A stretch of 64,000 bases of DNA, taken from Psammoneis japonica (Eukaryota). The DNA lies in NCBI GenBank assembly GCA_008632985.1, contig QPGO01000067.1, forward strand, positions 1-64,000, read 5' to 3'. This document shows, piece after piece, positions 31,394 to 53,810 of the stretch. Both the position numbers and the translations under genes were made by a program. Numbering within the stretch: position 1 is the stretch's first letter; each line of letters opens with the position of its first letter. Under the pieces are notes generated by a model. It was not told the DNA's origin. It did not search any database and worked only from the letters and a program-made list of their open reading frames with translations.

Positions 31394-33046
31394 TTACAGA
31401 AAATCCGAATCAGTTCGATTCAAGTCCTCCATGGCAGCATCGTTGGGAGGTTGTTCGGAGGAAGAGCCAGCGGGAACCGAAACTGCTGGGCGTTTGCGGT
31501 GCGGAGATTGACTGGACCCAGCAGACATGGCCACAAGAGACTCTTGAACAAGAGAGTGAACCTCATTAGATAAAGTTTCCAGTGAAGCCTGACAATGCTG
31601 CTCCAGACGCTCGATGCACTTTTCGTCATCCTGTTGAGATTGCAAGACGAGTTGCTTCAATTCGGCAACTTCTTGAGACGCAGAAGTGAGATCAGAGGCA
31701 GCAGGAGTGCCTGGAATGACCGTGCCAGGTGTGCTCCGGAGAACTTGCGCGAAGGTTTGAAATCCACCATGAATTCCCACAGCAGGCGGGATTGGAGCCG
31801 AAGGAGGAGGTTGTGGCTGTGCCGATGGATTGGTGAGAGAACCAGAAGGAGAAACATCAGAAATGTCAAGAGAAACCCAGCTCTGGACACTCGCAGATGT
31901 GATCGAATCTGCCGTGTCGGAAACATCATCAGTGACACCAGGGATCATCGGGCGGGGAGCGTTCACCAGAGGAACAACGTCGCCAGGGAGATCATTGATC
32001 CAGCCAGGTAACTGTTGAGAGATCTGCTGCTTAATTTGATGAAAATGAGTCTTGTCAACAAGAATGTTGTGCCGCGGAGTCTTGGCAAAACGTTTCGACG
32101 GAACAAAATCCAGTGCGCCGGGAACAGGGCTGATGTTGGCCGACAGGCAAAAGGCGACATTTTCCGGACAATGGAGCAAAGGAATAACGTGAGTTTTGGC
32201 AAGTGTTTTGCTCTGTTTGCGCACTGCTTTGTCGAATTCGTCAGGGTGAGAATGACGCCACCGGGAAAAAACAAGGACCAATGGATGCGTTTTTAGAACT
32301 TCCAACAATGCCGTGATCATGTCTTTGGCATGCTGCCGCGGAGTTTCAACAGCATAAAATGTTGCACGGATGGAAGGATCTTTGGGAGACTCAACGGAGT
32401 GAGGTGTCAATCGGAAGTGAAGTTTGGACTTGGCACGAGGAGAGAGTGACTCCAACAACTTTTTCACAGCAAGGTCAGCCGGACAGTGTTTCGGGAGATG
32501 ATCCATGAGGAGAGCAACGTGAGACAAGTCGACAATCGTCTCATCCCATTCATGACGCCGCATGAAAATGCCATTGTCTTTCAAAACTTTGTTGACGAAT
32601 GGAATGTTCCAGACATCTGACAAGGACAAGGAAGTGCGGATGCGATGGGCAACAACAAAGGTGGGGGGATGACGACGAGAGCCGCTGATGCGATGCACGA
32701 CAAAATGTTGTGAGTGAATGAGACCAGAAGTCCATTCAACCACGTTGACATCAGAAAGGCATTTGCCTCGGTTCGACATGATGGACACCTTGTTCACCAA
32801 TGGGTCTTGGGAGGCAGTCTGCTGTAAGGCATGAAGAACAGTCGTGTGCCCCATGGCGAGAACCGTGGTGGCGTTGTCTTCAGAAGAGGCAAGTTCAAAA
32901 CGAAGGGTGATCTCTTTCAGATCGGCACTTTCGGGACGGCCGGAACCAGTCCTAGTGGGAGTGAATGGAGCATTGTCCATGCCGGAGGGAGGATGAGGGT
33001 TGTGCTCACTGGTGGGGCCAGCCAGCGGCGGCAGAGGGGTCGTCAT
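31394..33046 (-). CDS. LINE ORF1 (550 aa, C-terminal coiled coil), Tyr-depleted and probably dead
   Basis: ATG at 33046, 75 nt inside the 5' end; open frame ends just before ORF2. Confidence 0.7.
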   Translation of the reverse strand: MTTPLPPLAGPTSEHNPHPPSGMDNAPFTPTRTGSGRPESADLKEITLRFELASSEDNATTVLAMGHTTVLHALQQTASQDPLVNKVSIMSNRGKCLSDVNVVEWTSGLIHSQHFVVHRISGSRRHPPTFVVAHRIRTSLSLSDVWNIPFVNKVLKDNGIFMRRHEWDETIVDLSHVALLMDHLPKHCPADLAVKKLLESLSPRAKSKLHFRLTPHSVESPKDPSIRATFYAVETPRQHAKDMITALLEVLKTHPLVLVFSRWRHSHPDEFDKAVRKQSKTLAKTHVIPLLHCPENVAFCLSANISPVPGALDFVPSKRFAKTPRHNILVDKTHFHQIKQQISQQLPGWINDLPGDVVPLVNAPRPMIPGVTDDVSDTADSITSASVQSWVSLDISDVSPSGSLTNPSAQPQPPPSAPIPPAVGIHGGFQTFAQVLRSTPGTVIPGTPAASDLTSASQEVAELKQLVLQSQQDDEKCIERLEQHCQASLETLSNEVHSLVQESLVAMSAGSSQSPHRKRPAVSVPAGSSSEQPPNDAAMEDLNRTDSDFL

Positions 33047-33140
33047 GGCGACGGCTGCTTGGTGCACAAAACGCGTAGAATTCCACGTAGAACTCACTAA
33101 TGTGTGCTTACGTAGAAAAGTAACTTTGCCCTTGAAGGTC

Positions 33141-35059
33141 GATTTGGCGTTGCCACTTGCAGCTTCCACGACAACGTTGACCTCAGTTGGTGGTTCAATG
33201 AAGTCGTCTTTGTTGTTGGTCATGCAGCAGGAGGCATGGTTGTCAACTCCGAGGTTGAACGAGTCTGTGTCGAAGTTGTGATCGTGTTGATCATTGCAGT
33301 TACAGCCATGGGAGCATGATGCAGTGTGGCATGAGGCGTGCTGCGATTTGAATCGTGTGAGTCGGCAAGTGGCTTTGTTGCACATGATGAAATGTCGGCG
33401 TTTTCGTCGGATGTGACGCATGTTGGTCTTGAGATGGTTTGGTTTCCTTGGTGGTCTACGACTTCTCAGGAGACATTCCGTCATTCGTCGTAACCAGGAA
33501 CGCAGGAGTGGAAAGGAGCAGAGCCAGTTCAGCAGTTCCACCATCGCGCAGCAGATCATGTTGAGCGCACAGAAGAATGGCAGGAAGACTGTGCATGCAC
33601 CACAGAACAGCCACAGCCGTAAGTGCAGCTTGACTTGTAATGCGGTGCTGGCGAGCACTCACTCTTGATCCGATACGTCGTGTACGCCAACGTTTGCCAT
33701 AGAGGCAGTTAGGTCAGATTCGGCCTTGTTCTTGACGGTGGTGCAGTCCTTGGTGAGGTGAGCAGACCAATGCTCGTGATGTTTGCACCATTTGCAGGGT
33801 TTGCCCTCAACAGTCTTGGTGTGTGATTGTCCGTCTTTAGGAGCCGTGTTGCGCCAGGCTAGCTTTCCGTAGAAGAGTTGTTTCTTGCATCCGTTAGGTA
33901 GGATCTTGAACTTCTGGCGCTTGTTGTGATTGTTGGAACCCGATTCTTTTGTTTTGTTGCTCTTGGTGGAGCTCTGAGCATTCCTGTTTCCGCTGCTGGC
34001 AGAGTGTGGAGCGTTGCGAGCTTTGTTGTCGCGCAGAGTCTTCACTTTGGCTTGTAGAGCTACGATGGTTTCTTGCTCTTTCGTTGGTGCCATCCACTTT
34101 TCAGATTCGATGAGGATCTTGTGCTTGTTTTCAGCCTTGAGCATGAGAGCATGTACGTCAAGATCTGATCCATCTTCGTAGTCACTCTTGCACTTCTTGA
34201 TGGATTCGATGAATTCTGAGTCGGTGCACGTGAGGCAAGCCTTGAATGCGTTGTTCAGCAGGTCGGAACCAGTGTGGCCGTGAGTGGCAAGTTTCTTTTC
34301 CAAGGATTTGACGTGGTTGTTGAAAGTCTTGATGTTTTGACCGTCAACTGCAGCCATGCAAGCATCCAGGTTGCCCATTTGGTCACGGATTGCCGAGACA
34401 GCAGCCCTTGTGTCGACTTGAGCCTTGGATGGAAGAGCTTTGAGGCAGGCTGCGCCGCATTCCTCATCTCCAACAGTGCACTGAGCCTTTTCTTCCGTTG
34501 CCATGATGGTCTTGGAGGCCTTGTCTAGGGTGCTCTGGAGACATGCGAGAAGCTGGCAGTTGTTCTGCGCGTTGCGTTGCGCTAGATTGAGGCAAGTGGC
34601 AGATGCGGTGCGAATTTGTTCAGCTGAGATTTGTCCACACTCAGTGAGCATGTCCTTGTTCTCGACTGGCAAAGCAGGAACTGCACCATGGTTGATGTTG
34701 ATTGTGAGGACTTTGTTCCAACCATTGGTTTTGGAACGGACCGCGAGTTCTTCGAGGAAGACTGGGATGTTGGGCGATTCAAGACTGAACTGGGTGTCCA
34801 ACGGCTTGGTCGCGTCTACGAAAACGAGCGTGTCACCTTTCTTGGTGTAGTCCAAAACGTCTGCACGGGCCAGTGCTGGTGACTTGGCAAAAGGTCCTGG
34901 AGCAGCTGCTGCTGGTGGTGCAGGCATGTTGTTCACAATCGGCTGGACAGCCGCCTGGACAGCTTGTGCGATGGCGTTAGCGAGCGCGTCAGCGTCCGCC
35001 ACAATGAGGTCTTGAAGTTCCTGAGCACGTCTTTGTGCTCCTCTTGTTAAATGGCACAT
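33141..35059 (-). pseudogene. gag: Copia C gag (33659-35059) followed in the same frame by a linker and the protease N-terminus
   Basis: WCKHHEHWSAH-x4-C knuckle; FDTDS..GVDNHASCCM..DDF protease motif. Confidence 0.85.
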
Positions 35060-35379
35060 CTTGTTGGTTCGGAGAGAACGTTGCTGGTTCGATTAAGAAC
35101 ACTTTATCGCAGAGGAAGCGTGTGAGCTGATGGTTTAATTAGAACTAAGTTGACAACTGGCCTTGTGATGAACACAGATGAACTGGTTGTGATTGCTTTG
35201 AATTTCGAAAAGGTGAGAAGACGAACGTCTCAACAAGTGTTTTCCGACAAGTGTTTGAGATGTCTTCAACAATTTGGGGGCCGTACGTGCAAACAATTTG
35301 GGGCCATAGAAATCGAATGTTGACAATCGGATGTCGCAGATGTCGCGAGGCATGAATGGACGTCAACAGTCACACCCAG

Positions 35380-38300
35380 CACTCACTGTTCTCTGTTTTT
35401 TTTTTTTTTTTTGTGAGAGGAGAAGAAACAAGTGCGGAAGCAAAAAATCAAAAACACACGCAATGCATGGGGTTCATGCAGTGTGTGTTTCTGAAAGCGC
35501 ATGTGGAATGATGCAGAGGAATCAGTGTGAGAAAATCTTTGGTGTCAACAAAGATGCATGCAGAAAAAAGAAAAAAAAAGCGCGTGTAGAATGACACAGA
35601 GGAGTTGGCACAAGAAATCTTTGGTGTCAACAAAGATGCATGCAGGCTTTGACTTTCTCGTTGTTGGACTCGGATTTGCTGCCAATCGCAGTGAACGAAA
35701 CCACGTCAGTGCCATCGTCTTCAGCATGCTCTGTTGTGATTGGTTCAACATGATGTGAGTTCTCCATTTGTCCACGGAAGCAAGAATTTTGGCATCACCA
35801 AAGTTCCCAACTAACCCAGGAAGCCTTGGGAAAGTCAGGCCACTCCCAAAATGATGCACTGCTGTCCACTGCTCTCTGTTGTTCTGCAAGAATCAGTTGC
35901 ATGGCACTGCACAAACTCCAGGCCTGCAGGTTGTCACTGAAGCTGGCATCGTCCATGCCCCTGCTTCGAGCAGTGGTCCCACCACCCCGCACACCATCCA
36001 CGCTGGCAAATCAAAGAAGCTCTTCGTCCTTGCCTTCTGTTGCTTCTTGGGTTTGTCCAAGCTCTGGCAAGTCAGAGAGAGCATGTTTGGCATCGGCTCA
36101 GGCACTCCATCTCCATCGACATGATCCTTGGTTTCTTCATCAAAATTGTCCAACAGCAGATGCAGCCCAAGACTCAAACTCCCCTGATCATCATCATTCT
36201 TCAGAGGGTCAATGAAGCCACTGTCGTCACATTGGAAAGGCAAAGGGATGAGTGTCAGGCACTTGTGCTGCTCATCCTCTTCCTGTGAATCCAGGCAATT
36301 GATGCAAGCTTGTCTCCCTTTCTTCAAGGCTTGACACTTGGGGTGGTTCTCATCAAATCCAGGAACACCTTCATGCTCAAAAAGAAGAATGTCAGGGTTG
36401 ATTGCGTCAGCCCCGGTCGGCAGCAGAGCTTGAATTCTCACAGAACGACTGCCTTTCACGATCTTGGCTTCCACATGATGGCTCTTGACACAGCAACGTG
36501 ATTGACACCATTGTCTGGGTCCATCCATGCAAGAACAGAGGTCGTGAATGCCTTGTCATGTGAACTCTGAAGTGCGATGAAACCTGCAGATTCTTTTGCA
36601 CTTCAGATGCCAAGACATCATCCGTGCTGCCGGAGTTGCTGGCATTCTCCTTCTTCTTGCCACTGGCAGGGACTTGGGCAGGAGGCTTGGATGGTGCTTT
36701 CTTGGTGGCAGCCTTCTTCTTGGCACTTGTCTTCACCATGGTGTCTTTGTCTTTGTCTCCTCTGGCAGGAGTGTCAACGTCTTCTTCATCATCTTCCTCC
36801 TTCTCGACTGCCTCTTCTTCTGCCACACCCACTTCCTCCACAATGTCCTCATCTTCTTCTTCTCCTTTGGTGTCTTCTGCCTTTTGCTTTCCGGTTTTGC
36901 CCTTGTCAGACTTGCACTTTGCTGTCAACATTGCAAAATGCATGGGTCATGATTCAACAATGCTGCAAAACAACATCAACACATTGCAACGACATAAAAA
37001 GAAACACACATCTGCTGACACCATCTTTTCCCAGCTTTACAAAATTCTCACAGGTGCGGCTCGTCTGTGTCCACCAATGGCTTTGTCCAAGTTGGAGTTC
37101 TTTTGTGGCCTCCAAGGTTTTTGTGCAAGAAAAGACGAACCATTCATTTGCCTGGAATTTTTCTTTGACGCAGGCAGGGTGCATCTGCGTTGGAGGGATC
37201 CCAGCCATGCAAGTGCTTGGCACACTCTTGAGCTTGTTGTTTCTTCCAGCGGGGTGCTTTTGATGACTGCTCAACGTTTTGGTGTGCTTCTTTTTCTTGG
37301 AGAGCACTGGCACACCATTTTGCATGTTGTGTGTGCAACATTTGTGTGTTCATTGCAATTTTGGGTGATGTTCAACTTTTGAATTCCGGCCAGAATTCTA
37401 AAAATGTCTGTTCATGATTTCCTGCCACTTTGATGCAAGCGATCACCTCGAGAGAGGGAACTGCAAAGAAGCCCATGGCAACATGCAAAAGAAGGACATC
37501 AGAGGTGCACAAAAAAATGGGCAAATCAAATGCAACGCTTCCATGTGAGATGTCACTGTCATCCAAACAGGCCAGAAAACCACTTGCCTGCCCTGTGCTT
37601 GCATGTGCCATTCATGCAGATCTCTTGTGTGTTGCCATGCACTTCTTCGTGACATCCTCTTTCCTTGCCATTGCTCGCATCAAAGTGGTTGGAAATCGCA
37701 ACAAAAAATGCCGGCCAAATTGGCCAGAAAATGACCAGCATTAAAATGCAGAAATTGGTGTGTGAAGCAATGTGATTGATGCATTTGAAAATGCACAGTC
37801 TCATCCACCATGCTGTGGGCAGGGAGGTGGGGCCATGGGGCAACAGCATTTGAGTGCATCTTTCTGTGTGCATTCCGCACTGGAATGCTGCATGTGAGGC
37901 CGGTGTGCTGACCTGCAGCACCCAGCAACACAGTGGCGCCACCACTCTCAATCAACAAGAAATCGAGACATGACACGAGTGAAACACAAAGCAGAGATCG
38001 GTTGGTGCCAAATGCCAGCACTGTTGTTGTTCTGTGTCATTCGCAGACCTGCAACACATCTGAGATGATCATGCAAATTGTTCATGCCAGCGTCATTGTT
38101 CTGCCACAGTTGACTCTGCAGATTGTAAGACAACAAATCAAGGGAAGTCCAGGAAGTCATTTCATTTGTTCAAGTTCAAGAAGGCAGGACTGCAACATGA
38201 GGTCTGCACAAATGTTCTCACTGGCATTTTGTGTGGATTCATGGACCTTTTTCTCCCAGAGATTGGCCAGATCTTGCCATCTTCCAACACAGTCTGAAGC

Positions 38301-40150
38301 ACAATGTTGAGAAGAATGAGTGGCTTGAAGCAGATGATGGATGTGGTGCCAAGGACCCTGACTTTGTAAAGACTCCTGCTGGCATTTGATGCGTGGAACC
38401 AAAGGCAGTTGTCAGGGCTAGATCCATTGCCAGGAACAAGGAGAGACAGCCAATGACCATCTCAAGCTCTTCAAGTGTGCCTTTCTGAATGCTTTCACCA
38501 CAACATTGAACTTTGTGGCCAGTGCTTCTGAGCCTGCGCCATCGTCACACAGCTGTCTTTCCAGCATGGCAAAGGCTCATTCAGCACAGCAGACAAATGT
38601 GGTGTCCTGCAGAAAACCACCGATTTGAAGGATTTTCCTCTTCCAAGCACTCCAGCAGATGATGATTTGCAAGAGAGCAAACAGTGTTCTTTTTGTGAAC
38701 TGGAGCATTCATTGACAAAATGCGTGCCACGCCCCAGCATGCCGTGCATGCCAACCTTTGCCCAAACCTTTTGCTGTCATGCTTTGTGCACACATGTGCA
38801 GTGGCCAACATGCAGTCTCTGTGCTGCAACATGACATGAGCACAATGAGACCGGTTTGGTGCATCTTGTCGACCTGGCCATTTTTGTTGAAGCCGCCAAC
38901 ACCAGGGACAAAGGCAGGGCTGGAACAGATCCGCATCATGGCCAGACAACCTGACTTTCCCGCAGCTTCTGGCAGGAAGCAAGCAATTGGAAAATGCTGG
39001 TGTGCACGTTGAAGTAAACTTCTGCGTCACAATTGCGTCAGCAGCTGCAAGTTTGAATGACCAGGATTGTTGATGAGAGAACAGTCTCAATGAGTTGGAT
39101 TTGAGTGTGCGCCCCTCCACATCCAATGCAGAGCTTCTGGGATCCTGGCCAAGAACGCTGAGAAGCAACTTGATGCCAAGAATGCTTGGGAGTCTCACAG
39201 AGCAGAGCTTCTGGTCAAAGCTCAACTGCTCTCCCGTTCAGAAGCTCAGGGTCATTAAAAGCAATCAAATCACATCTCCTGCCTTGTCCTTGACTCCACA
39301 ACTCCCTTGGTTGACAGAGTTGGGCAGAGCACAACATCCTGGGTGTGGTGTGTGGGCAAAGAAGAAAAACCTTTTCCAAGCAGCAGTGTGATCCAGTCAC
39401 AGTGATCAGTGTTCCTGTCCCAAACAAAGCTGGAAAAGTGAGAAGAATGAAAAGTCCCAAGTTTGACCAGTCACAGTCACAAAGACTGGACCATGTCATC
39501 TTGACCTGGAAGTGCCCTCCTTCAAGATGGACAAACCGAGAAGTCACAGTTGGTGGGTGGATGTGCTGCTGGCATGTCGTCTCCATCTAAACTTGGGGGT
39601 GTGAAGAGGACTCAAGTGCACGCCAAGCAGTTCTCCACATCCAACACAGAGCTTCTAGGATCCCAGCCAAGAACCACTGAGAAGTGACTTGACACCAAGA
39701 ATGCTCAGGATTCTCACAGATCTGAGCTTCTGGTCAAAGCTCTGCTCTGCACAAAGGGGGGATGGGTGAAACCAAACCCTCTGCAGGGTTCTGTGAAGAC
39801 AAACACAGGGGCTCGCAGGACCAAGAGAAAAGTGATGACACCTCGGGCACTTTTTGAGCAGCAGCTTTTGATGCTGTGGCCAACAGCATTTTGCTGCATT
39901 GGCCACAGGAAAAAAAAAATTGCAGGCTCAAAAAAGCAGAAGAAATGCCAGTTCCTGCTTCCCCATGCAGAAGCTCAGGGTCTTCAAAAGCAATCAAATT
40001 GCATCTCCTGCTTTGTCCTCAACTCTGTGACTCCCTTGGTTGACAGAGCCCCCCCCCCCGATGAGACACCCAGGTGGTGGCCACCTTGAAACCATGGTCA
40101 CACAGGACTGCATGCAAAGTCCTGCACCACCAGAAGCACATGTGTCCAAC
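35380..40150. mobile_element. Decayed repeat region, possibly including a PIF/Harbinger-type DNA transposon remnant on the minus strand (~35.9-39.0 kb)
   Basis: Depleted of TpA and CpG. Acidic/Lys-rich ORF remnants at 35893-36943. HTERCTQMLL..SHTNFCI near 37740-37880 weakly resembles the Harbinger IE.AFG.L..LHNFCI motif. Confidence 0.3.
39119..40048 (+). repeat. Dispersed direct repeat in two blocks (~39119-39223 with ~39638-39741; ~39238-39318 with ~39967-40048)
   Basis: catccaa..cagagcttct..ggtcaaagctc and cagaagctcagggtc..ccttggttgacagag each occur twice, differing often by TG/CA swaps. Confidence 0.8.
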
Positions 40151-42478
40151 TCAGATCAACTGTGTTCACGGAGTCTTGGCAGACAAGCCAATGGAAAACC
40201 ATCCTTGCTGCTGATGTCGTCAATCACACAATGCACTGTCCCTCCTTGAGCTGTTTGTTCATTTTTGCAGTCACTTTCCACTGTTCATGTTTTGTCCTTC
40301 GTGTGTCACAATCAATTTGTGATGATGGACAAGCTTCAAAATCCAAAATTGAACCTCTCAAATCTCTTGGTGGCAATTTACAACATGTGGACATTCAGCA
40401 ATGCATCACATGAATGACAAAGTCTGTGTGATTTACATTTGTTGTTAATTGGGTGTGTTAAAATTCCAAAAGTGAACAGATGTGTTTGCTGCTGCATGTT
40501 GACATTTAAATTCCAAAACTGCTTTTCTTTTGGCCCGCGCTGGTGTCCGGTCGACCACCATCCAGCATCGCCAATGATGCTGCTGCTGGTGCAAAAAAAA
40601 ACAACAACACAACACAGTGCTGTGTGCAACAGAAGGCACAGTGGGCACAGCGCTCCATGGATCATGATGAGTTCAAACCAAGAGAAACATTCAAAGGGGC
40701 GTCGAGAAGGTGGAGATGAGAAACAATGAGCTGAATTTGCTCAGAAGAAACGAGCCTCTTCTGTTCAAGGCAGCAACATTGCAAGCAACAAGAATTGCAG
40801 CAAGTTTGACAAGAGCAAAATGAGAGCAAAGCAACACAAAGCAGAAAAATGTGGTGACACAAGGGGAAGAGAAGAGGGGTGGGTGGGAAACAGTGGCAGG
40901 CAGATGGAACGCAACAAAACAGCGACTTCTGCAACAGTGACTGGGCATGTGTCTGGCAGTTGCAAGGATGATGGACTCTCTCCAATGAGTCAACCCTGAA
41001 AGCAGCCAACAAAGTTCAATCATGCTCAAGAAGTCACCCACAGTGAAAGCGAGTGACAATTTTCTGGAGCAGTTGTGGTTGAAGGGATGGGGGCAGACAC
41101 AGAGGAGGACATGGGGGAGAACAAGCATGAAGAGAATTGGAAACTCTTGCAGCTGGTGAAACCAATGAGGCTGATGTCGCATTCATTGCTGAAGCAAGAG
41201 TGGTTGAGGACAACGACCACACAGAGCTTCACAATGAAGTTGACCGTCTGCAAACAATGGCAAAAGAAATGCAGACAAGAGATGAGCAGACAAGAAACAC
41301 TCCATTGTGCAGGGTGAAGCGGTTCCTGTTGCCTTGGAAGCAAGCTCAATGGCAGAAGCCGCAACTGACAAAGAGCAAAGGAGCCATGACACCCACAGAA
41401 GAAAAGGCGCAGATGGAAATTGGTTTCAACACCAGCCCTGCTGGTTGTGGCCAGTGACAGCCATTGTTGCAGTTGCCACTGGTGGCGGAGCCGGTGTTGG
41501 CATCTCTCAAAGCAACAACAACAAGCAACCATCATCAACAGTCCCACAAACTGCACCTGCACCATCACCTTTGCTTGAATCATCATCAACAATGCCTTCC
41601 CCAATGATGCCTTCACCACTGTCTTTAGAAGCTGCTGTGGAGCTCACAGAAGCAAACTTGTTTGACAGCGGTGCAGCACTCAGTGACCCATCATCGCCTC
41701 AGTCTGAGGCTCTGCAGTGGCTGCTGAGCAATTCTGGGCTGGATGGCTGCTCGGATTGCCGCAAGATGCAGCGGTTTGTGCTCACGACTTCACAGTTCAG
41801 CACCAATGATGGAGATGGGTGGAAAAACTCAACCAGCTGGTTGAGCAACAGCCATGAGTGTGATTGGCACAATTTGTCTCACTTTTGTGGTCCACTTTGC
41901 AGTGACGGTGAATTCATCAGTGCCATCTTTCTGCAACAGGAAAATTTGGTGGGAACTTTGCCACCAGATCTTGTGCCATTGTCAGATTCCATGCGTGAGT
42001 TGATGCAATCATGTTTTAAAATGCAAGAGTGAGTTGACTCACATTTTGTTTGTGCAGCAACCATTTTGTTAGAGTGGAATTTTCTGTCGGGTCCTGTTCC
42101 AACCAAGTTTGGACTGTTGACAAAAGCTCGGCAGGTTTCTTGAGTTTTGGACATTCCCCACAAGTGAGCACAATTGACACCACTCTGAACTTGTGCAAGT
42201 TTGTTTAACTTCATGTTGCAGGATTTCTCAACTTGGGTCCCAACTGGTTGTCGTTGTCCATTCCCAGCAAAATTGCAGGCATGACTGGTCCAAGTGAGTT
42301 GCAACAGAGGTTTTGTGCGATTGGCGTTGGTTGTCCTCTGTGTCCAATGTTGTGTGTGCCTGGCCATTTCTTTCTGGGAAAATCTCTGTTGTGGGTTGGC
42401 TTTCCTTTGGAGAAAATGAGCTGACGGGCAATGCACCTTCAGAAATCAACCAAACAACAAAGTTGGGTGTAAGTCATC

Positions 42479-45400
42479 TGATGTGCACATTTTAAAAATC
42501 GAAAATTCCCAAGATTTGATTCCAGGAATCTTGTCAAAATTCGATTCTTGACAACGCACGTGACTCGCGCTCGTGGATTTTTGGAAATGCCCATTCTTGA
42601 GAGAATCCCCCCCCCCTTCATTTTCAAAAATGCATGCCTTTCATTTTCGAAAATGCCGTGCTTGCTCTCCCGAGCAATGCAGTCCACACAAACTTTGTGG
42701 CAAACACCATGAACAATGATTGTCTCAACCACATTGTGCGCTGTTCGAACGTGATGCATTCCATCACAAAAGTGGAAGGGGGAACCCAAACCACATCCAA
42801 GATGCTGACACAAGAGCAATTCCATCACATTGAACACCTTCTTTCACATTGTGAGTCTGGAGATGCAGCAGCCGGACTTGATGTCAAACAATGGCGATGC
42901 AAGCACCCTGAATGGAGCCAGACATCAATGAAATGTTTTGTTCATGACAGATTGACGTGTTGCCAAGATGCAAAGGTTTGCTGGCCAAAGGACAAACGTG
43001 TCATCCATGAACTCATGTGCTTTGACATCATGTTGCAAGCTCATGAGATGGAAGGCTGTCACCGTTCCATCAAAGCAACATTCAGCCATTTGTCCAATGA
43101 TTGCTGCAACACAGCTGCCAACATGGTTTGCGTTTTTTGCAATCATTGTCCTCATTGCATTTCTCTGAAGTCCAAGAACAAAAAGTTTGCATCCATTGTA
43201 AAAGACAGGGGGAAATTGCAATGCTTCGCAGCACCAGTTTGCAACACCCTTTTTTTACAGCTGTCTTGAAGATTCCCACTTTCTGAGTCACCCGACGACT
43301 CCCGTGACAAACTCAATTTGTGCACTCTTTTCATGGAACTCACTCTCATTGGCAACATCACCACCACTGCTTTGTGCTGTTTTGTTGTTGACAACCATGC
43401 TTTGTTTCTGTTTAACCCACACTCAGCCATCTGGCAAAATGCGTCATTCAGCAACATTGTCACAACAATCCCTCGGAGAGCAAAATTCTTTGTCGTCTCC
43501 CAACAAACTTTCAGCCATGACAGAAGAGAAGCATCACAAACACTGTTTTCTAGCCAAGGCTTTTGGCATGGATGAGGTGGGCAGTCCTTCCACTGCCAAG
43601 ATGTCCAAGGCATTGACGGAAAAGGAGCACGATCACATCGTCTGCTTGCTTGATCACATCATGGACATGGGTGACATTGAGAAAGGTCTTGACGCAAAGC
43701 AGTGGTGCCGCAAATGTCCCAAGTGGCACCACATGAATGACAAGCACTGTGTGGAGCATCCTCAGGAGGGTCCTTCACTGTTGTTTTGTAAAGGAGAGGA
43801 AACGCCCAAACAAGTCATTCACCAGATGATGTGCTTTGACATGCTCAAACAAATCCACTCATTGTCCAGTCACAAGAAGGTGGCATTCACTCATGCTGTT
43901 GCACAGGACAAGCACTTTAATGTCACCCAAATCATTGTGAAGGCTTTCATCAACACTTGCCCACAATGTTCTTTGAAGCAGCCATGGGCTCCAAAGCAAA
44001 AAGGGGCCGTTCATTCAAAAATGGTGCTGCTCAAACATGGTGCAGTTAGGAAGACTGTCTTTTTTGCAGCGACAGCAATCAATCATCCACAAGGGCAAAA
44101 TCCCAACCTCTGCTTGAATGCCCATTGAATGGTTCAAAAACAAATCACCACATTGCAGCAAAAAGACAGCAAACTTGTTCAGAATTTTCTTGTGCACCCT
44201 GACAATGTCTTTGTTTTTGGGCTTCTTTGGGTTGTCCCTCCACACTTCCATCACTTGCACCAAGCTTTTTGCAGCTGCATTCACTCCACTCCTCTCTGGT
44301 GGGCAACCCAGGCCTGGCCAACCAAGAAGAGCATCACAATGGGGTGCCTGGTGGGTTTCCAGTCTTGTTGATGTCAACCATTGGTTTGCACATGGCATGT
44401 CCAAATCCAAAAGCATCGTCAGGTGGCTCGAACCAAGACACAGACAGCATGACCATTTCAGTGGCACCAAAAAAGCAGGACTTGTGTGGATGCAACTCAA
44501 AGCACATTTGCACAGACACAATTTGAGGCAGTGCAAGTGAGTGCTTGTCAATGAGTGCAACAATGAAGTGGAGAAAAACCTGGTGATGGCCTGTTGGCTC
44601 CATGTTGCGTGCAACTCGGTGTGCATCAATCCCGGCACATCCCTTGAATTTCTCCAAGTTGGCAAAAAGCAGCTCATGATCAACGCACTTCAGATGATCC
44701 GGCAGGTCTTGGTGTGCTTGGATTGCATGTGTCATCAGTGGCAGAGTCATTTTGATCTGCCATGCAGAGTTGTCCACTGACGACCTGGAACATCCAACAA
44801 CAGTGTTTCTCACATTTCCAAAATCATCAATCCCCAAGACGGATGGCACGGGTGCCATGGGTTCGTTGTTGCTGTTGTGGTGGTCAGAGTGACAGTCAGA
44901 GAAGCAATCAAATGCATTGATGAGGCAGCACAGGGCCTTGGTCTTAATCTCTTGCATTGCACCCAGCAAAAGGCAAACAAAATCTTCAACTCAGTTGGGA
45001 AGTTCTGGATCAACCCAAGGGTTAGAAGTGAACTTGGGTTGGAGAGTGTCCATGATTTGAGAGAGAATCAAAAAGAATGCCATGGCTTCCTTTGTGCCCT
45101 TCTGTTTGCATGGCCTTGCAACACCATTGGCATGTCCCTTCCTTGTGGTGCTTGTGTTGGTGATTGCACGGCTGATGGTGTGTTCCTGTCTTCCCCATTT
45201 CCAAACATTGAGACTCTCTGTCCTTTGGTTTTTCATGATGTTTCTTGATGAGTTTCTGTGAATGATTCCAGTCTGCTCAATGTGTCAGGTGTTGTTGGTG
45301 AAAAGAATTGACAACCACGAGAAAGCATTTGGAATGATCTCTGTCAATGTTGTAGATTGACCAGACAGTGGATGTGTCATTGGATCCAAGTTCCAAAGCA

Positions 45401-47600
45401 AGGTTCACAGTGTTGTCTTGGCAGTGGGGAACGTTGGCTCTGCAAGGCAAAGACACCTGCAATGGAGACTGAAATGTGACATGACAGCAGAAAACACATT
45501 TTTCTTGGTGCTTTGGAGACAGCCAGCCAAGGTTGTTGATTGGCTTGTCCTCGGAAGAGTCATCGTTGAAGCACTCAGGGCAGACCTCTTTTAAAAAATA
45601 AAAACAATGTTGAACATGCTCTCCTCCTTAAACACCTTTTCCCTCAACGAGGCCTTGGACAGTCCAACTTTCTCTCAACAGCACAGGTGAAAGTGTTCCT
45701 GCTGGGCATTTTAGCTGGTGCACCAACAGAAGATGAAGATGACACTTGAAGCCAATTAGAAGGTTTGGATGTGACTGAAGAGGTGGAGTCAAGGCTGGCA
45801 GACTGGACCAGGGAAGATCTTGTGCGGCAAGAACACCAGAGGTTCCAATGTGTCCGATGAGGCAGATTCAAAGCTGAGAGACCAAGACCTGTTAGACCAG
45901 GACTTGTGGGACCTGGCGCAACAAGACACAGGAGGTTCCAAGACATCTGAATGGGTGGAGTCGAAGCTGCGAGACCTGGACAGAGAAGACCTGGTGCAGT
46001 GCAACACAGGGCTGCAACTCCTGCTGCAGAACTTTCCATGCAGCATGTGTTCGTTTGCAGGAATCCCTTGAGCAATTGCATCCACAAGGAGATGGGAACA
46101 GGAACACAAACAAGGGCTCTGGTTGGGAACTGGTGCTGCCGACAGAGACAGCAACATTGGGAGGGAGAGCAGCCACCAGAACGATGCCCAGTGGTGGACC
46201 AACTGGAGAAGGCAGACTCATGACTGGCCCCAGACCAATGCCTGCTGGCACTCAAAGAGAACAGTGGCAGTGCGGAGAGCAAGACCTGCACCTGTGGACC
46301 TGGAGCAAGAATGAGACCAACACCTTGAAATTGACCAGGAGCAACATGACCAAGAGCAGTGTGCAGAGCGTGACCATGACATGGACCTCAACCCAGAACT
46401 GGTGTGGGGTGAGTGACAAGTGGAGGAACAACCATGACCACAATCTTGACCACGAACCATGCCACCACTGTGATGACCAGCAATGGTGGGAGAAGAGGGG
46501 GCTTGCCTGGAAGAGGGTTTCTTGAAGGGACGGCCCTTTCCCCTGGAATGCCGAGTTTGCTTTTTTGCAGTCAATGCAGTCATGGGGGCATGCACAGGTG
46601 CCCACTGAACTGGTGCTGAAGGGAGTGCAGCACATTGAATTAACTGTGCTGGAGCCAGAGGCTGCAACGGTGCAGGGGGGGACGTGATGGTGTGGCTGCG
46701 ACAACGGCGATGGAGCAGCAACGGAGTGGCAGGCTGCAACGATGCAGTGGGAGCAATGCAATGTGGCTGAGACAACGGTGACAGAGTTGAAGGCTGCAAC
46801 AATGCGGTGGGAGCATGACAGCATTGCTGCAATGACCGCAACAGAGCGGCAGGCTGCAATGATGCAGTCGGAGCATGACAGCATTGCTGCAACAACAGCA
46901 ACGGAGCTGAAGGCTGCAATGATGCGGTCAGAGCATGACAGTGTTGCTGTGACAACAGCAACAAAGCTGAAGGCTGCAATGACATGGTTGGAGATGAATT
47001 GGTGAAAATTCTTGACAGAAAGTCACGGCCAGGCAATGAGCTGCAATGCCATGATGAATGTGCAGAGCAATGCGGTGATCGGCAAGGATGCTGTTCTGGA
47101 GAGACATCATGGCAACAAGCAGACCCACCACATCCATGATGGGGTGAACAACAAGGACAACACACAGGGAAGTCATTGCGGATGTGACATCTTGATTGTC
47201 TGGCAGAGCAATGGAGAGAGGAGGGAGGTGAGAGGTCAAGACCTCTTGACCAAGGTGGAGCACCACTGTCACCTCTCACAAGATGCATGGCGTGAAGCAG
47301 GCAGATGAACAACAGTTGGTGCTGACAGTGTGGACAGAAAGCAACAACAAAAAGGCTCGCGGTGGAGTGAGAAAAGCAGCGATGACCATGTTGCTTTCTC
47401 TTTTGTGTTGGATGTGATGAGCTGGTGGTTGCGTGGTGTGCCCAAAATGACTGTTAAATTTGTGCCAACGTGCAACAATGACCGTCACCAAATGGGCACG
47501 ATCAAAGATTCTCAAAAAATGATGGTGTCATTTTTTAAAATGACCATTTTGGGGAATGCTGATTTTTGAGAATCCACGTTTTCGAAATTCCATGCAACAC
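42479..47600. mobile_element. ~5.1-kb insertion in intron 4 of the dead LRR copy, with two tandem degenerate HHCC integrase zinc-binding modules (Ginger/KRBA2-like)
   Basis: Host sequence breaks after gtaagtcatc and resumes at gcccttg. VIHELMCFDIMLQAH..H..T..VFCNHCPHC (~43000-43160) and VIHQMMCFDMLKQIH..H..T..AFINTCPQC (~43810-43970). Confidence 0.6.
46718..46985. repeat. 60-bp minisatellite, about 4.5 copies
   Basis: AGGCTGCAA at 46731, 46791, 46851, 46911 and 46971. Confidence 0.88.
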
Positions 47601-48184
47601 TTTGCCCTTGATTTCTGGCCCCTCCACTTTCATTTCCTTTGACTTCAGTTGCAGCCGCAAATCTCATGGCGTCCCTTTTCTCATGTTGTTGTCCTTCGCA
47701 GATTGCCTTGACATCCAAGACAATGACTTTGCACTGCCGTTTACGTGTCCTGGGTTCACATTGACTTGCTGGGTTTTGAGCGAAGATCCTTCAAATGCTT
47801 CCTGTCGGGAACTCCAACAGTTGTCACGTCATGTTGATTTTGGTCCTTCCGGCAAGGATGCAATGGTCACCGCATGAGTGCAGGAGGCATTGTTGCCAAT
47901 GCCATTGCACTCAACTTGCATCAAAGAGCAAAACATGCAAAAAGAAACAAAACAAGGCAAACAAGAATGACACGTGGTGATTGACAGCCGCTGTGCCCAA
48001 AACAAGATTGAGCTTGAAAAGGGCGTCACCCTTGGCTTGTCTTTCTGCGCAACGACAATCTGTTTTTTTGCAAAGCACCAAAAAACCAGTTTGCTTGTCT
48101 CCTTTCCTTGCAACATGTTCTCTCCACTGATTCAATGCGCATCCCATCTTGGGATCCTCGCTGCACAGACTCAATGGTTTTGTC

Positions 48185-51100
48185 TGACAGACATCCGAGA
48201 TGATGGGGAGCACACTCCCTTGTGTCAGACAGACTGGCACAGACAGCATGGAGAGATCCGATGATCTCTCCTTTGCTCACTTTCTTTCTCATCCAGTGCA
48301 CGATTGTCATCTGTCCCAGACATGCATTAGATTGTCCCGATGCCACCAGCCCATGAGGTCATGAGCAGCAGTGCGCTGTTCCTCTTCCTCTGTTCTCCTC
48401 TGTCGCAATGCCCGCTGTGTGATTTGGCAATTTTTCATTGTTGAAATCGTCATCATTGTCACAGCTGTTTTTTCGCCTCTCGATTTTGTGATCAGACGAC
48501 CACTGTAAAACACATGCCAGAGCTCTGTGCAGGAATTTGATTTTTTCCCGTGCAACCATGGTGAACAAAACCCCAAGTGCCATCGATTTGACCAAGATCA
48601 AGACGACACGGGTTGAATTCAGCCCACATGATCTCTTGCCCAATGCACGCCGTCACCTGAATGCTCTTTATTCTGATGAGACACCTGCTCCTGAAGATCT
48701 TCTGGATGGATTCACTCCTCAAGGCCTCAAGAGCAATGCTGTCACTGTCCTCCGTCGTGAGATCCTTCACAATCTCATCATCCCCCAAGCTGCCCTGACT
48801 GAAGATCTTGCGTGCATCGGACCGATCATTGAAAAGGCCCCTCTCTTTGTGGCCATCCCTCAAGACTCCCCAGTTCATCTGAACCTCAGTGCTCTTCAGA
48901 AGGCCATGATCAAAGTGATCTCAGAGAACGATGACACCACAAAAGCACACACTGGGACTTTGCGTTTCCATTTCAGCCCTGGTTTTGGCATCATGATTGC
49001 TGGGATGATGTCTCAGATGATCCACATCCGGACCCAATGCCTGCTTCAAGTTCTGCATCCCCGCCGGTTGCTGCTGCAGGTCCTGCTCCTGAAGACTTTG
49101 CCAAGGCCTTGGCAACTCATTTGCCTGGTCCAAACGAGCATGGGCAAGCCATGACTGATGGGTTGAAGAGCATTTCAAGTTCTCATGCATGTGCTGAGTC
49201 CAAGTCATGCCCAGTTGCTGGGTCCACTGCTTGCAGCTCTGATGCTGCTGTTGTTTCTCATGTTGAAGATGCGCTCACTGTGGACACTTGGATGGATCCC
49301 ACAGATGCCAACTCCTTGAATGCCAAGTCTGCCATGTCTGTTGTGGAACCTGTGGGTGAGCCACCTGCAGTTGTTGATGCTGGATCCCTTGCATTTCCTG
49401 CCAAGTCGTCGGCACTTCCCGAGAATGTCCATGCCTGCCTGCTCAAGACCCCGAAGTTTTTTGTGTCTGGCGGCCCCATTGTTTTGCACAATGGCGGTCA
49501 CATTGGTCCATTGGATGGTTCATGCTGCATCACCAAGGTCACCCATGAGCTGCTTGATGCCTCTGTGGTGCCTTCGCATGATGCGCATGACACCCGTGGA
49601 CACAGCCACAGCTCTGTTGGTTGTCAAGTCGCTTTGTCTTTGGATTTTTGGCTTGGCTGTCGTCAATTTTGGATGTGCGGTGCCGCCATTCCTTCCACCA
49701 TCCAAACAAGACCAATGGGAGCAGGGCAGTTTTATGAAAGAGGGCCACGGAGTCTTGCTGCCTTCTTCCGCTGTTCTGCAGAATTCTCCATTGCAAGGAC
49801 CGTTGTCGTGTCTGAAAGTGCTTTTCATGGTGCTCCAGACCTGTCCACCATTGCTGACGATGATCCTTTGATTCCTGATCAGGGGGAGGGCACAATGTGG
49901 CACAGAGGAAGTGTGCAAGATTGATCAGCACGCAACAGCCTCCACTGGAAAAATGTTGGGTGACCAAGATTCGCACGTCACAGAGAATTCCACAACCACA
50001 CGTCATCTTCTTCCAACAATGAAGCACTCCAGGCTGCACTCTGTTTGCTTGCTGAGCTTGGAAGTGGGGTGACCCTGAAAGAGCGCAACTGAGTCTCACT
50101 GCCTCCCATTGCATCACTTCTGTCCTTCACCGTCAGGACCATTGTTGCTTTGAATGGCATTTTTCCTGTCACCCCCGACCTGTCGACCATCCCTGATGAT
50201 GACCCTGCATTTTTTTGATCAGGGGAGGGATTCCCACAACCTTGAGGCCCAGCAGAACTCCAAAATCCTTCGCAACGAGCTCCCGACATTTTTCTTTTAC
50301 CAGGCATGTGACAATTGCACATGCAAAAACACATGGATCCGACATGTTTGCTCTGCAAGTGCCTCGAAAGAGGACACAAGTCTGCGACAAATTTACGCAG
50401 AAATGTGCGAAAGAAAAACCCGGATTTTGGGACATGTTTGGGACATGGCTGGGCACAAGGATGATGCAGAGGAAGCATGTCAGGCTGTTGAGAATTCTGC
50501 TTTCCACCAAAACACCTCACACTTGACGATCGCGTTTTGAACGCCGTGCGATGCTCACCTCCAATGCGTCACTGTTCTTTTGACATTGAGCGACTTTACG
50601 ATCCATTTTGTTCTCCCAACATGTTTTTCAGGGGCAACACAAATGGTGGTGGAAGCATTGGTTTGTCAGGTGGATTGTTGTTGCTTCATTTTCACCGCAT
50701 CATCCACCATGGTGGATTTCCATTTTTTGGCCCTGTCTCCTCCAATGAGTTTTGGCGACAGTGTGACTCACCAGAATGTCTCTTTGCTGCCAATCATTTG
50801 TGGATTGACAAAATTCTTCTTTGGTGCACAACTCAATTTATCCAAAAGATTTGTTGGGACTGCCTTTGACATTTTTTGTCAAAGACCGATGCGCTGATCT
50901 CGGGACGGATGTTTTTTGTTCCCAACATGCTCGTCGCTTGTCGAGATGTTGTCGTTGATTGTTGTCGTGTTCGCAGACCAAGTCTTGGCCATTTCTTTTG
51001 GTGCTCTTATTTGTTTTTTGCTGCTCTGGTCCTCTCTTTCATTCGGATTGTCTCTTTTCTTTCTTGATGAGCTTTTGCATTGCTCATCAGGGGAGGGTGA

Positions 51101-51266
51101 CAGACATCCGAGATGGGGAGCACACTCCCTTGTGTCAGACAGACTGGCACAGACAGCATGGAGAGATCCGATGATCTCTCCTTTGCTCACTTTCTTTCTC
51201 ATCCAGTGCACGATTGTCATCTGTCCCAGACATCCATTGGATTGTCCCGACACCACTGGCCCACAA
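48185..51266 (+). mobile_element. 3.1-kb non-autonomous LTR element, ~170-bp LTRs (48185-48356, 51098-51266), with a gag-like ORF remnant and no recognisable pol
   Basis: Near-identical direct repeats starting TGACAG; PPT aggggaggg before 51098; PBS-like GGTCATGAGC at 48357; TSD-like TTGTC/TTGCC matching TTATC in the live copy. Confidence 0.85.
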
Positions 51267-52621
51267 TTGCCAATCCATTCTTGTTCCTTCATGGGAAAAT
51301 GCAGCGGCTGGAGTGGGGTTTCTGTCATTGGAGCCAGTCGCCGGCCTTGTCTTTGACGCACTGGGCACAGCAGAAGAGCTGCACCTCCCTGACATCCTCC
51401 TTGCTTCATGGCATTGGCAGTCTTCAAGATCCAAGCTTGTCCCCTTTGCAATTCAGACATTGTGTTGGCACTCAGTGCAATGTTCAAGATGTGCTTCAGA
51501 TTCATCTGATGCTTGGTCATCAAGCAGAGAGTTGAAGAGCCTGATCAGCAAACAAAGAAGAAGCAGCACATGAGAGGAGGCAGCACGGAAAGAGCTGCAG
51601 GGGTGGGAGCAAAGAATGGGTGCACAGGACAGCACACGGGGTGTTTTAAAGAAGGGGCAGGAGATGCATCAGTGCAGCCAAAGTTTGAAGAGAAAGTGGA
51701 GAGCATGGGCAGAAAGATGATGAACAACGTTGCAGCTGAGAGTTTGGGTGGCCCAATGAGAAGGAGCAGAGGAGTGGCAAGAGGAGCCAAAATGGTCAGC
51801 AGTGATTTGATGCCAGGCAAAGTCAGCCGAGCACAACACACAATGCATGGCGGCCAAAGTGAGAGCATGAGAGAAGGCAACATGGGAAGGGTCAGAGCCT
51901 TGGAAAGCAGAGGACCAAGTTAGACCAGGGAGGCTTGGGCTGGGAGCAGAGACCAGGGGGGAAGGAGCCAAAAAGGAGTCGATGGAGAAAGAAGCCAAGA
52001 CCACCAAGGTGATCAACAGGAAAAGGAAGGAAGAAGATCCCATCATCACAAAGAAACTGAATGGTGAGGGGGGAGAAGCCATTGTTGGAAGAGGAGGCAG
52101 CAGGTCCAAGAAACTTCAACCTCATGCTTGCTTTGTGTGCTTCAGTTGGAGCTGGACAAGAAGGGTCAGGCAGACCAGGAAGAGGGTGAGGGGGAGCTTT
52201 GGAAATGGTGACATCACAACAGCAATGCAGTGATGATGGGAAGGGTGGCAATGGAAGCAAGAGGAGGAGTGGTGATGCCAACATCAGCTGGGCAAAGGAG
52301 GGGGCAGTTCAGAAGGAGATTCACAGGTTCAAGATGAACGTCGCCAGGGTGTGTGTTGCACAGTTCAGCAAGAGGACCCAAGGTTTGGGTGATGACAAAA
52401 ACTGCATCTCGGATGCCGTTGGACAACAGGAGCCCAGATTTGTGGTTGCCTTTGCAAGCAAAGGCATGATCACTGCAGGTGTTGAGGGCAGCATGGCTGC
52501 AGGGGCACGGGGTGCCAACAAGCAATGGAGGCAGCACAGGGAGGCAAAGCTTGCGTTGGGCAGCAATGGTGCACTCATCAGAAGCAATGTGAGTGGCATG
52601 GGAGCAGTGGGAGAATGAGCA

Positions 52622-53810
52622 AAGTGGGAGACTGGTGGTGAGAGGAGACAGAAGGGAAGGCAAAAAAGAGCGCATCTGCCACATCAATGACATGGATGAA
52701 ACCAACAGACTTTCTGCAGCCGAAACACTGCAGGACTCAATTTTGTGTTGACACCTTCTGCACCATCCAGGCAATCTGCTAAAACACGTGACATGGTTCG
52801 ATTTTGACAGGAATGGGCAAACTCTGTGATCCAGTGTTTGTCAAAGCTCATGACTGAAAAGTTTTATTTCAGTCTTGCCTTTGCTGCATGTTTCAGCAAA
52901 AGCTGAGTCGTGCATGACCAACAATGCACGTTTCAGCAATTTCTGAAACCTGCTGCATGTTTCAGCAGACTCTGCTGCAACCTGCCATGTTTCAGCAATT
53001 GCCAATGCCAACTGCATCAGATGCCCATTTGGGGCCCACATGTGGGCCGTAAGATTTTTTTTTGGCCCATGTGAGGGCCGCAAATTTTTTCAAATCTTCA
53101 ACGACAGAGACAGCTCATGAACAGACCCCCCACAGTCAAATTTTCCACACCCGAAAACACAGGAATCGGCACTCCAGCTGTTAAAAAAGTCCCACTGGTT
53201 GTTGTTGTGGCCTCTAAAATGTGCTTGCATTTTTGCGCAATTTTCCGCCAATTTCTCCCTCCACCATGGTGGACCCTGGGCTGGCCCCGCCGGTGAAGGA
53301 TGTTTGCTCCAGCAACCTTGGACACCTGACAACCTCATTGGGGAAATGCCAGATGTGTCAGAATTGCTTGCAGTGGGAATGGACATGCCTTTTTCACTTG
53401 TTCAAGACATGCCGCGAAACCCGGAATTGCACTCTGCTGCCAAAGCACCCTCTGCTCCCGCACATGCCCCCCCTCCAAGTCTTCCTGTGGAGCCACCAGT
53501 GTGGCCAAGAGAGCTCGGGTGCAATTCAGCTTTGCCAAACAAAAGTTGATTGTTTCTGACATGAAGCACTTGCATCCTCAATGCCAGCTGCTGCACTCCG
53601 CAAAGGAAAGCATCGCCGGGGCATCAACGAAGGTGTGGAGTCAGCCATCTGTCTTGTTTTTGTCCCGAAGCAAGTGCTGGGAGACTGGTGGTGAGAGGAG
53701 ACAGAAGGGAAGGTAAAAAAAAATGCATCTGCCACATCAATGACATCGAAACCAACAGGCTTTCTACAGCCGAAACGCTGAGGGACTCAATTTTTGTTGG
53801 CATCTTCTGT
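52622..53810 (+). repeat. ~140-bp direct repeat (~52622-52760 and ~53672-53810) at the right border of the repeat domain
   Basis: gggagactggtggtgagaggagacagaagggaagg..ggactcaattt occurs twice. Confidence 0.85.

Follow-up and report, generated by a model that had tools for sequence, protein, structure and literature searches.

The window analysed here is the whole stretch of 64,000 nucleotides at positions 1 to 64,000 of contig QPGO01000067.1 (forward strand; GenBank assembly GCA_008632985.1, Psammoneis japonica). It carries a leucine-rich repeat (LRR) gene segment and, 33 kb downstream on the same strand, a second copy of this segment that has lost nearly all of its TpA dinucleotides. The source has kept them. 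Judging from the dinucleotide profiles of the window and from the twin long terminal repeats (LTRs) of its retrotransposons, the gene copy is one victim of a window-wide process.

The LRR gene segment and its degraded copy

The source segment (6834..10564, plus strand) comprises the promoter, a five-exon LRR gene of diatom type and 1.2 kb of downstream sequence, and its observed/expected ratio (o/e) of TpA is normal. According to the exon map and the homologs, homology of the LRR gene starts at 7747, and its stop codon, TAA, lies at 9365-9367. We mapped the duplication by BLAST of 6001-11500 against the window and by comparing the window with itself. As the initial annotation had described, the intron-containing segment from 6834 to about 10560 is duplicated; BLAST returned three matches that are co-linear with the source and on the same strand, split by two insertions. 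The first piece of the copy (40159..42478, plus strand) corresponds to source 6834-9154 with 83.6% identity, and its first-exon open reading frame (ORF) contains four in-frame stops. The second piece (47604..48184, plus strand, 83.6%) corresponds to source 9155-9727 and reads CTCCAA at 47812, where the stop codon used to be. The third piece (51275..51838, plus strand, 87.5%) corresponds to source 10007-10564.

The first insertion (42479..47603, 5125 bp) is unclassified, and we did not find an LTR, a terminal inverted repeat or a Pfam domain in it. It is itself depleted of TpA and CpG, and at 46659-47017 a 60-bp unit is repeated in tandem about five to six times, the units being 65-90% alike. 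The second insertion (48185..51274, plus strand) is a TpA-depleted LTR element of 3.1 kb, with LTRs at 48185-48353 and 51098-51263 (94.7% identical) and a probable 5-bp target duplication that was ancestrally TTATC. Between the second and third pieces, about 279 bp of a 138-bp tandem repeat are absent from the copy, which has fewer units than the source; the source repeat, at 9662-10074, has three units that are 93% alike. The same 138-bp repeat forms a repeated module of 46 amino acids in a minus-strand ORF of 184 amino acids (9641-10192), downstream of the LRR gene.

The homology between source and copy has exact ends, at 6834 and 10564, beyond which the sequences are unrelated. Because of this the pair does not represent misjoined haplotypes, a possibility that the initial annotation had named as one that would undo its reading. 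The alignment covers both the promoter and the introns, so the copy was made from DNA, and the earlier exclusion of an RNA intermediate holds.

Substitutions were counted in global alignments of the source with the three copy pieces. There are 453 of them, 354 transitions and 99 transversions. The source has 124 TpA in the aligned sequence, of which 8 are kept in the copy and 116 are lost, with 52 changed to TG and 49 to CA. In total TpA falls from 124 in the source to 12 in the copy, and CpA and TpG rise. For CpG the corresponding numbers are 175 in the source, 42 kept and 133 lost (62 to TG, 58 to CA). Transitions thus affect 103 of 246 TpA sites (42%) and 119 of 348 CpG sites (34%), against only 4.5-4.7% of the rest (71 of 1514 A/T sites and 56 of 1242 G/C sites). 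Even at a generous background of 10%, the loss of at least 116 of 124 TpA has a probability of about 5e-105. Source and copy have practically the same GC content (0.476 and 0.477). At 20 places (14/261 and 6/228; about 4% predicted by our own estimate) CA and TG are swapped between source and copy. These need no mutation of the source, since two-step paths through TA or CG in the copy would suffice.

The claim that almost all TpA and most CpG of the copy are converted is thus borne out by pairwise alignment, and so are the individual changes that it cited. The string GGTATAGCG has become GGCACAGCG at 7332, GTAACTAGG has become GTGACTGGG at 7621, and GACTACTCG has become GGCTGCTCG at 8431 (source positions). 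Intron donors have changed from GTAGGT to GCAGGT at 8815 and from GTAAGT to GTGAGT at 8678 and 8971. The stop is lost by a change from CTCTAA to CTCCAA at 9362, its TAA at 9365-9367 being the one that closes the last LRR exon after ...SCREL. Only the copy is mutated; the TpA o/e of the source is 0.53-0.65, the same as in other blocks of host genes.

The polarity of these changes was determined by translating the copy codon by codon and comparing it with 28 outgroup LRR proteins. At 46 informative amino-acid differences the outgroups agree with the source 35 times and with the copy 4 times, with 7 ties. In the two exons examined all 7 tyrosine codons are gone from the copy, among them residues that 13 of 27 and 23 of 28 outgroups share. 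Three of the four stops in the first-exon frame arose by CGA to TGA. Since the outgroups side with the source, the TA states are ancestral and the copy is derived. The initial annotation had the polarity right, and its own proviso, that an outgroup might reveal TA as the derived state, did not come true. The reverse polarity, with repeat-induced point mutation (RIP) acting on the source, was rejected on the same agreement.

RIP, as known from fungi, converts C:G to T:A, mostly CpA to TpA, and thereby creates TpA and makes DNA AT-rich. It is premeiotic and triggered by homology, and hits both copies of a duplicate. The fungal frame against which the initial annotation had set the copy does not fit this window. 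The nearest named relatives of two host proteins, an NADH dehydrogenase (57488-59041) and the LRR protein with its 28 homologs, are from the pennate diatoms Seminavis, Pseudo-nitzschia, Cylindrotheca and Nitzschia (45-56% identity). The host genes have long exons. Moreover, the 124 TpA of the source fall to 12 in the copy, whereas RIP would have made more.

Blocks, transposable elements and LTR twins

The window was divided into blocks by dinucleotide profiles (1 kb and 250 bp) and by the positions of individual TpA. Blocks of host genes (5000-12241 and 53714-64000) have a TpA o/e of about 0.6 and a CpG o/e of about 1.0. Young blocks (12242-23713 and 26708-36000) have a TpA o/e of 0.05-0.36 with a CpG o/e of 0.6-1.0, and in old blocks (1-5000 and 36000-53714) both are low, at 0.00-0.16 and 0.03-0.65. 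The density of TpA is 40.3 per kb in host, 9.4 in young and 2.9 in old blocks. The edges, at about 5000 and at 12241, 23714, 26707 and 53714, are sharp to about 100 bp.

The gene copy lies in the old block 36000..53714, where only 58 TpA remain in 17.7 kb (TpA o/e about 0.05, CpG o/e 0.2-0.6) and the o/e of CA/TG is 1.6-2.0. The other old block, at the left end (1..5000), has a TpA o/e of 0.00-0.06 and a CpG o/e of 0.03-0.18. No recognisable domain was found in the old blocks by Pfam or tblastn. The first young block (12242..23713; TpA o/e 0.05-0.33, CpG o/e 0.8-1.0) holds two gypsy-type elements, A and B. The second (26708..35999; TpA o/e 0.06-0.36, CpG o/e 0.6-0.9) has very long stop-free ORFs. 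Between the two lies a patch of normal TpA (23714..26707, minus strand, TpA o/e 0.45-0.71), inside a continuous copia-type pol ORF of 1228 amino acids. The RVT_2 domain spans the left edge of the patch, and the remaining ORF is TpA-depleted.

TAA and TAG need a TA, and a change of TA to TG or CA makes no stop; this is why the blocks are full of long ORFs. Per kb and strand, the number of these two stops drops from 16.9 to 2.3. The window has 138 ORFs of at least 120 amino acids, the longest of 1470. In three minus-strand ORFs at 26523-30932, 31397-33658 and 33662-35092 (1470, 754 and 477 amino acids) Pfam gave no significant domain; the loss of stop codons has probably created them as artefacts, and gene finders would call them as proteins.

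We identified transposable elements by a Pfam scan of 71 ORFs of the window. Element A (11899..17287, minus strand) is a Ty3/gypsy LTR retrotransposon encoding protease, reverse transcriptase, RNase H and integrase. It is nested in the left LTR of element B, with the target duplication CAAAC. Element B (11814..22195, plus strand) is also of the Ty3/gypsy type, with its left LTR at 11814-11898 and 17288-17487 and its right LTR at 21915-22195. A third pair of LTRs, C (22469-22724 and 35120-35375, 95.3% identical), bounds a composite at 22469..35375 (minus strand), within which a Ty1/copia-type pol ORF was found by Pfam at 22749-26432 (minus strand). The same scan placed a remnant of an endonuclease of the long interspersed nuclear element (LINE) type at 30400-31200, in a young block. 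A single N at 31099, between the source and the copy of the LRR segment, falls inside this endonuclease ORF. The ORF continues across it, so the N looks like an ambiguous base and not a scaffold gap.

The two LTRs of one element are identical at insertion, and their differences therefore record what happened afterwards. LTR pairs A to D differ at 37 places. Seventeen of these are TA in one twin and CA or TG in the other, and 14 are CA in one and TG in the other at the same dinucleotide, so that 31 of the 37 are TA-type differences or swaps; the remainder are 3 CG/CA, 1 CG/TA and 2 others. In pairs B and C all 18 differences are of the TA type; the 456 columns contain no mismatch besides these, and every one of the 18 shared CpG is preserved. 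A further 85 bp of LTR B contribute only 6 more TA-type differences and 1 swap. For a swap between CA and TG to arise, an ancestral TA must have changed on one strand in the first LTR and on the other strand in its twin. Given these swaps and the TA differences between twins, the mutation was post-insertional and two-stranded. By our own estimate, which counts unseen sites of identical outcome as equal in number to the swaps, about 82% of the LTR TpA were lost before one ordinary substitution. The rate at TpA would then be at least about 100-fold above background, again by our own estimate. The gene copy, with a divergence of 7.1% from the source at non-TpA, non-CpG sites, is old relative to elements B and C.

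The LTR twins also bear on the idea that the elements arrived already mutated, by editing of RNA or cDNA during retrotransposition (ADAR-like A-to-I on UA, or APOBEC-like on cDNA). Most of the targets are indeed LTR retrotransposons, and a 5' U or T preference is reported as typical of A-to-I editors (10.64898/2026.01.13.699255). However, the two strands of the gene copy are equally hit (52 TG and 49 CA), the twins carry independent outcomes with 14 CA/TG swaps, and block edges cut through elements. A gene copy that keeps its promoter and introns does not fit either, and we regard editing before integration as highly improbable.

In the protein of element A only 5 of 22 conserved tyrosine columns are kept. 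The other 17 are changed, 7 to cysteine and 6 to histidine, and other conserved residues change in 0-38% of their columns. Tyrosine makes up 0.75% of the protein, against a median of 3.53% in 120 homologs. Such destruction of conserved tyrosines in pol argues against an origin of the low TpA by selection, that is, elements that evolved to avoid TA (a TA-cutting nuclease or RNA decay being the cause), next to a gene copy that merely decayed. TpA is under-represented in most genomes, and at about 0.6 even in the host DNA of this window, which such an explanation would accommodate. Nevertheless, a dead pseudogene has the same conversion, LTR twins differ from each other, and related elements elsewhere are undepleted (0 of 78 loci with the signature). 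Of all explanations considered we find selection the hardest to credit.

Comparison with sequencing runs

The sequencing runs found were three entries, all from one sample of one study. Between the contigs of run X1 and window positions 7001-27000 there are 752 differing places, 685 of them transitions and 41 transversions. Among the 40 differences listed, 31 fall in the transposon block, and 28 of these are interconversions of TA, CA, TG and CG, so that other copies of the elements follow the same pattern.

These contigs allow us to weigh an artefact of assembly or base-calling, in which a modified base at TpA (and 5-methylcytosine at CpG) is read as CA or TG by a long-read base-caller. The sequencing platform of the assembly is not on record, and CA and TG as alternatives at one site resemble strand-dependent miscalls. 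Contrary to this, the k-mer contigs of run X1, at a depth of 50-80 and up to 315 kb long, imply accurate reads, and at swap sites they have CA or TG and not TA, at a depth of several hundred. Of the 31-letter words sampled from 7001-17000, run X1 also contains a fraction of 0.69. Host DNA makes up only 49% of this stretch, so the run must include exact matches to many words of the TpA-depleted element. In addition, the gene copy carries 99 transversions, indels, two insertions and a divergence of 7% at other sites. An artefact is in our judgement very unlikely.

In the host region, with the source gene, 3 of 9 listed differences from the X1 contigs are TA to CA or TG (8874-8889 and 11065). Two of the three lie in an intron of the source gene, and the number is too small to judge whether host DNA mutates at a low rate. 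Contigs of runs X1 and X2 join 11814 to 22196, the outer ends of element B, via 190 other letters, and another contig joins 11894 to 17288 with element A absent. Insertions A and B may be polymorphic in the sample, or the joining contigs may be other copies.

Position, flanking bases and chemistry

Family A has a depth of 1700-3100 in run X1, against 50-80 for host DNA, which corresponds to about 40-50 copies. At the left edge of the first young block, 428 bp of transposable element sequence (11814..12241) abut host DNA and have a normal TpA density. This spared edge comprises 85 bp of the LTR of B, the complete LTR of A (163 bp) and some 180 bp of the interior of A. The host-side LTR of element A has 15 TpA and the inner one 4. 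Likewise, the host-side 85 bp of the LTR of B keep the TpA that their partner inside the block lost. A weaker case is found at the right block edge, where a copy of a 136-bp repeat (53678-53809) keeps 2 TpA that are lost in its inner partner. The gene duplicate adds a further pair of once identical copies of which only the one inside a block was rewritten.

Position rather than homology or copy number seems to decide what is hit, since block edges fall within high-copy elements that adjoin host genes. Targeting of a domain instead of homology pairing had already been proposed in the initial annotation. The domain part of that proposal is consistent with the spared element edge and the single hit copy, and its chromatin part would hold if block identity reflects chromatin state and the blocks are, as we presume, silenced.

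The principal alternative on this point is a RIP-like process that is triggered by homology, through pairing or small RNAs from repeats, with the source having escaped by chance or by purging selection. Every recognisable target is a repeat or a duplicate, as this would require, and diatoms are reported to have DNMT4 enzymes, related to fungal RID and without known function (PMC9998398). Several observations speak against it. The direction is opposite, TpA being lost and not made. The source is unmarked even in its introns and in intergenic DNA, where there is nothing for selection to purge, and an LTR of a family with 40-50 copies is spared at the block edge when its twin is hit. Furthermore, the hypermutable insert of the chlorarachniophyte Bigelowiella natans is described as single-copy (Mettrop et al., bioRxiv 10.64898/2026.01.13.699255). 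We consider a homology-triggered process unlikely.

The loss of TpA depends on the flanking bases. Survival in young relative to host blocks is 0 of 75 sites (on the expected scale) for ATAT and 0.05 for ATAC and GTAT, and rises from 0.13 for ATAG and 0.15 for GTAC to 0.48 for CTAG and 0.63 for TTAA. The preference reads from these values as 5'-RTAY-3', with ATAT erased first and TTAA nearly immune. In the old blocks TTAA makes up 21 of 65 remaining TpA, and in the gene copy 11 of the 12 remaining TpA are in a TTA context, 4 of them newly made from TTGA. An additive model with the strength of the 5' flank in the order A > G > C > T fits the ten classes. At sites where the two strands differ in context, the T-A-Y strand was hit in 39 of 59 cases (P = 0.009).

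Between source and copy, transversions from A:T to T:A are about four-fold enriched at TpA sites (11 of 246, against 16 of 1514 elsewhere; P = 5e-4), and those from A:T to C:G are not enriched at TpA. The former excess is what would be expected from abasic sites at adenine, and we therefore lean towards adenine deamination. The chemistry would then be deamination of adenine to hypoxanthine, which is read as G.

The same hypermutation, in place and limited to blocks, could start from a lesion on thymine, for instance by enzymatic oxidation to a base of the hydroxymethyl-uracil type that mispairs with G. Thymine bases of this type are enriched at TpA in dinoflagellate DNA. TpA is palindromic, so T to C at R-T-A and A to G at T-A-Y are indistinguishable by sequence. 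The enrichment of A:T to T:A fits an abasic adenine under the A-rule and not an abasic thymine, which is a weak and indirect argument. A primary lesion on thymine is improbable in our view.

The CpG layer behaves differently. Young blocks have lost TpA and kept CpG, and old blocks have lost both, which indicates that CpG loss is a separate and slower process. It is limited to blocks, with a CpG o/e of 0.03-0.65 in old blocks against about 1.0 in host DNA. This layer is probably deamination of methylated CpG; diatom transposable elements are reported to be CpG-methylated via DNMT5a (PMC9998398). The decay of methylated CpG in silenced transposable elements resembles what is seen here in its loss of CpG to TpG and CpA within the same blocks. 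It accounts only for the CpG layer, the TpA process being separate and much faster.

Interpretation and known systems

Based on these observations, we suggest as the probable explanation that blocks of a diatom-like genome undergo position-limited hypermutation of TpA after insertion, and that the gene copy is a bystander. A process at the DNA level would turn TpA into TpG or CpA, by A:T to G:C at the A of TpA on either strand. It would act on double-stranded chromosomal DNA after insertion, confined to delimited, transposon-rich and presumably silenced blocks, with a preference for 5'-RTAY-3' and a rate at least about two orders of magnitude over background. Such a process could create no stop codons, and mutated sequences would keep very long ORFs. 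A slower second layer would strip CpG in older blocks. The 3.7-kb LRR duplicate, made at the DNA level, would have been rewritten as a bystander within its block, and the source, among host genes, would have been left untouched. Of this picture, the mutation spectrum and its polarity, the action on both strands after insertion, the sharp edges and the flank rule are shown by the sequence itself; a chromatin state behind the blocks and the deamination of adenine are inferred.

Some points weigh against this explanation. The evidence is historical and includes no mutation that was seen to arise. The signature was found in none of 78 related gypsy loci in metagenomes (lowest TpA o/e 0.39 for a locus and 0.29 for a 1-kb window), and low tyrosine in none of 120 listed pol homologs (lowest 2.56%); both sets are best-scoring matches and are biased towards intact copies. 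Nothing in this window supports generality among diatoms. All runs stem from a single sample, possibly the very data from which the assembly was built. The unmutated 3-kb patch at 23714-26707 lies in the middle of a block and is not explained by nearness to a host gene; it could mean that an active 5' half was protected, that gene conversion took place recently, or that the assembly is a mosaic. Finally, the gene copy may be a gene fragment that was amplified within a multi-copy element. Its flanks are without a recognisable domain of a transposable element. In the flanks (35376-40158 and 51839-53700) and the first insertion we found no Pfam domain at E <= 0.001 among the 71 ORFs scanned, none that is credible at E <= 0.5, and no pol homology by tblastn. 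Terminal repeats joining the two flanks were not found.

The closest known system is that of B. natans, whose mutation-accumulation lines are reported to show A:T to G:C hypermutation of TpA only, in a viral insert that is silent and present once (Mettrop et al., bioRxiv 10.64898/2026.01.13.699255). According to the preprint, 230 of 231 mutations in two integrated viral regions are A to G or T to C, reported on TpA, and TpA-poor clusters rich in CpA and TpG in that genome are enriched for reverse transcriptase and DDE domains. Its authors hypothesise adenine deamination, with an ADAT2-like candidate. Likenesses to the window include A to G and T to C at TpA, TpG and CpA in similar numbers (here 52 and 49), delimited regions that mutate orders of magnitude faster than the remaining genome (here at least about 100-fold, by our own estimate), and low TpA with high CpA and TpG as the long-term signature. 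B. natans is a rhizarian in which the mutations were seen directly, whereas here the host is a stramenopile diatom and the evidence historical. The depletion of TpA here, to an o/e of 0.03-0.2, is far deeper than the o/e of 0.45 given for the viral insert of B. natans (nucleocytoplasmic large DNA virus, NCLDV). The targets here are LTR retrotransposons and a two-copy gene segment, with no proven single-copy target among those identified; the target in B. natans need not be repeated. The RTAY flank rule, the sharp edges inside elements and the CpG-decay layer go beyond the text of the preprint.

In our literature search this preprint was the sole matching report, and no paper joining diatoms with TpA, CpA and TpG together was found. 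As far as we found, a signature of this kind has thus been reported once before, and is now seen in a diatom-like genome.

Fungal RIP (in Neurospora and other fungi) is alike in that dinucleotide-specific transitions inactivate transposons and gene duplicates and leave blocks of odd composition. It differs in that here TpA is destroyed and CpA and TpG are gained at constant GC, only one of the two copies is hit, and the host resembles a diatom. APOBEC, on cDNA, and ADAR, on double-stranded RNA, also produce enzyme-like, context-specific clusters of transitions in mobile elements, with a 5' T/U preference in the case of A-to-I editors. They modify a single strand, of RNA or cDNA, ahead of integration, whereas here both strands of integrated DNA are affected, including a gene copy that was not retrotransposed. 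To our knowledge, directed hypermutation as a genome defence is well understood for cytosine only (RIP and APOBEC).

More tentatively, and with somewhat less than even confidence, we speculate that diatoms and chlorarachniophytes share a DNA-editing defence that is directed by position, with adenine deamination at 5'-RTAY-3' on both strands of silenced blocks. If true, fungal RIP would have a counterpart whose targets are set by silenced chromatin blocks and not by homology. Such a defence would erase TpA too fast for one ordinary substitution to appear in an LTR, and it would disable proteins by wholesale replacement of tyrosine by cysteine and histidine, leaving giant ORFs behind. In that case the edges at 12241, 23714, 26707 and 53714 would record heterochromatin boundaries in fossil form.

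The window has its controls built in, namely a gene with its duplicate, LTR twins and spared element edges. Its flank rule (RTAY, with TTAA immune) is a handle for matching candidate enzymes, and its block edges, at a precision of about 100 bp, are a handle for comparison with chromatin maps. A third handle is the evidence that favours position over homology in the choice of target. For annotation, such blocks yield many long false ORFs, the loss of tyrosine hides transposons from domain searches, and hypermutation of TpA inflates ages based on LTR divergence. The much deeper signature in a diatom-like genome suggests that the process is widespread among marine protists.

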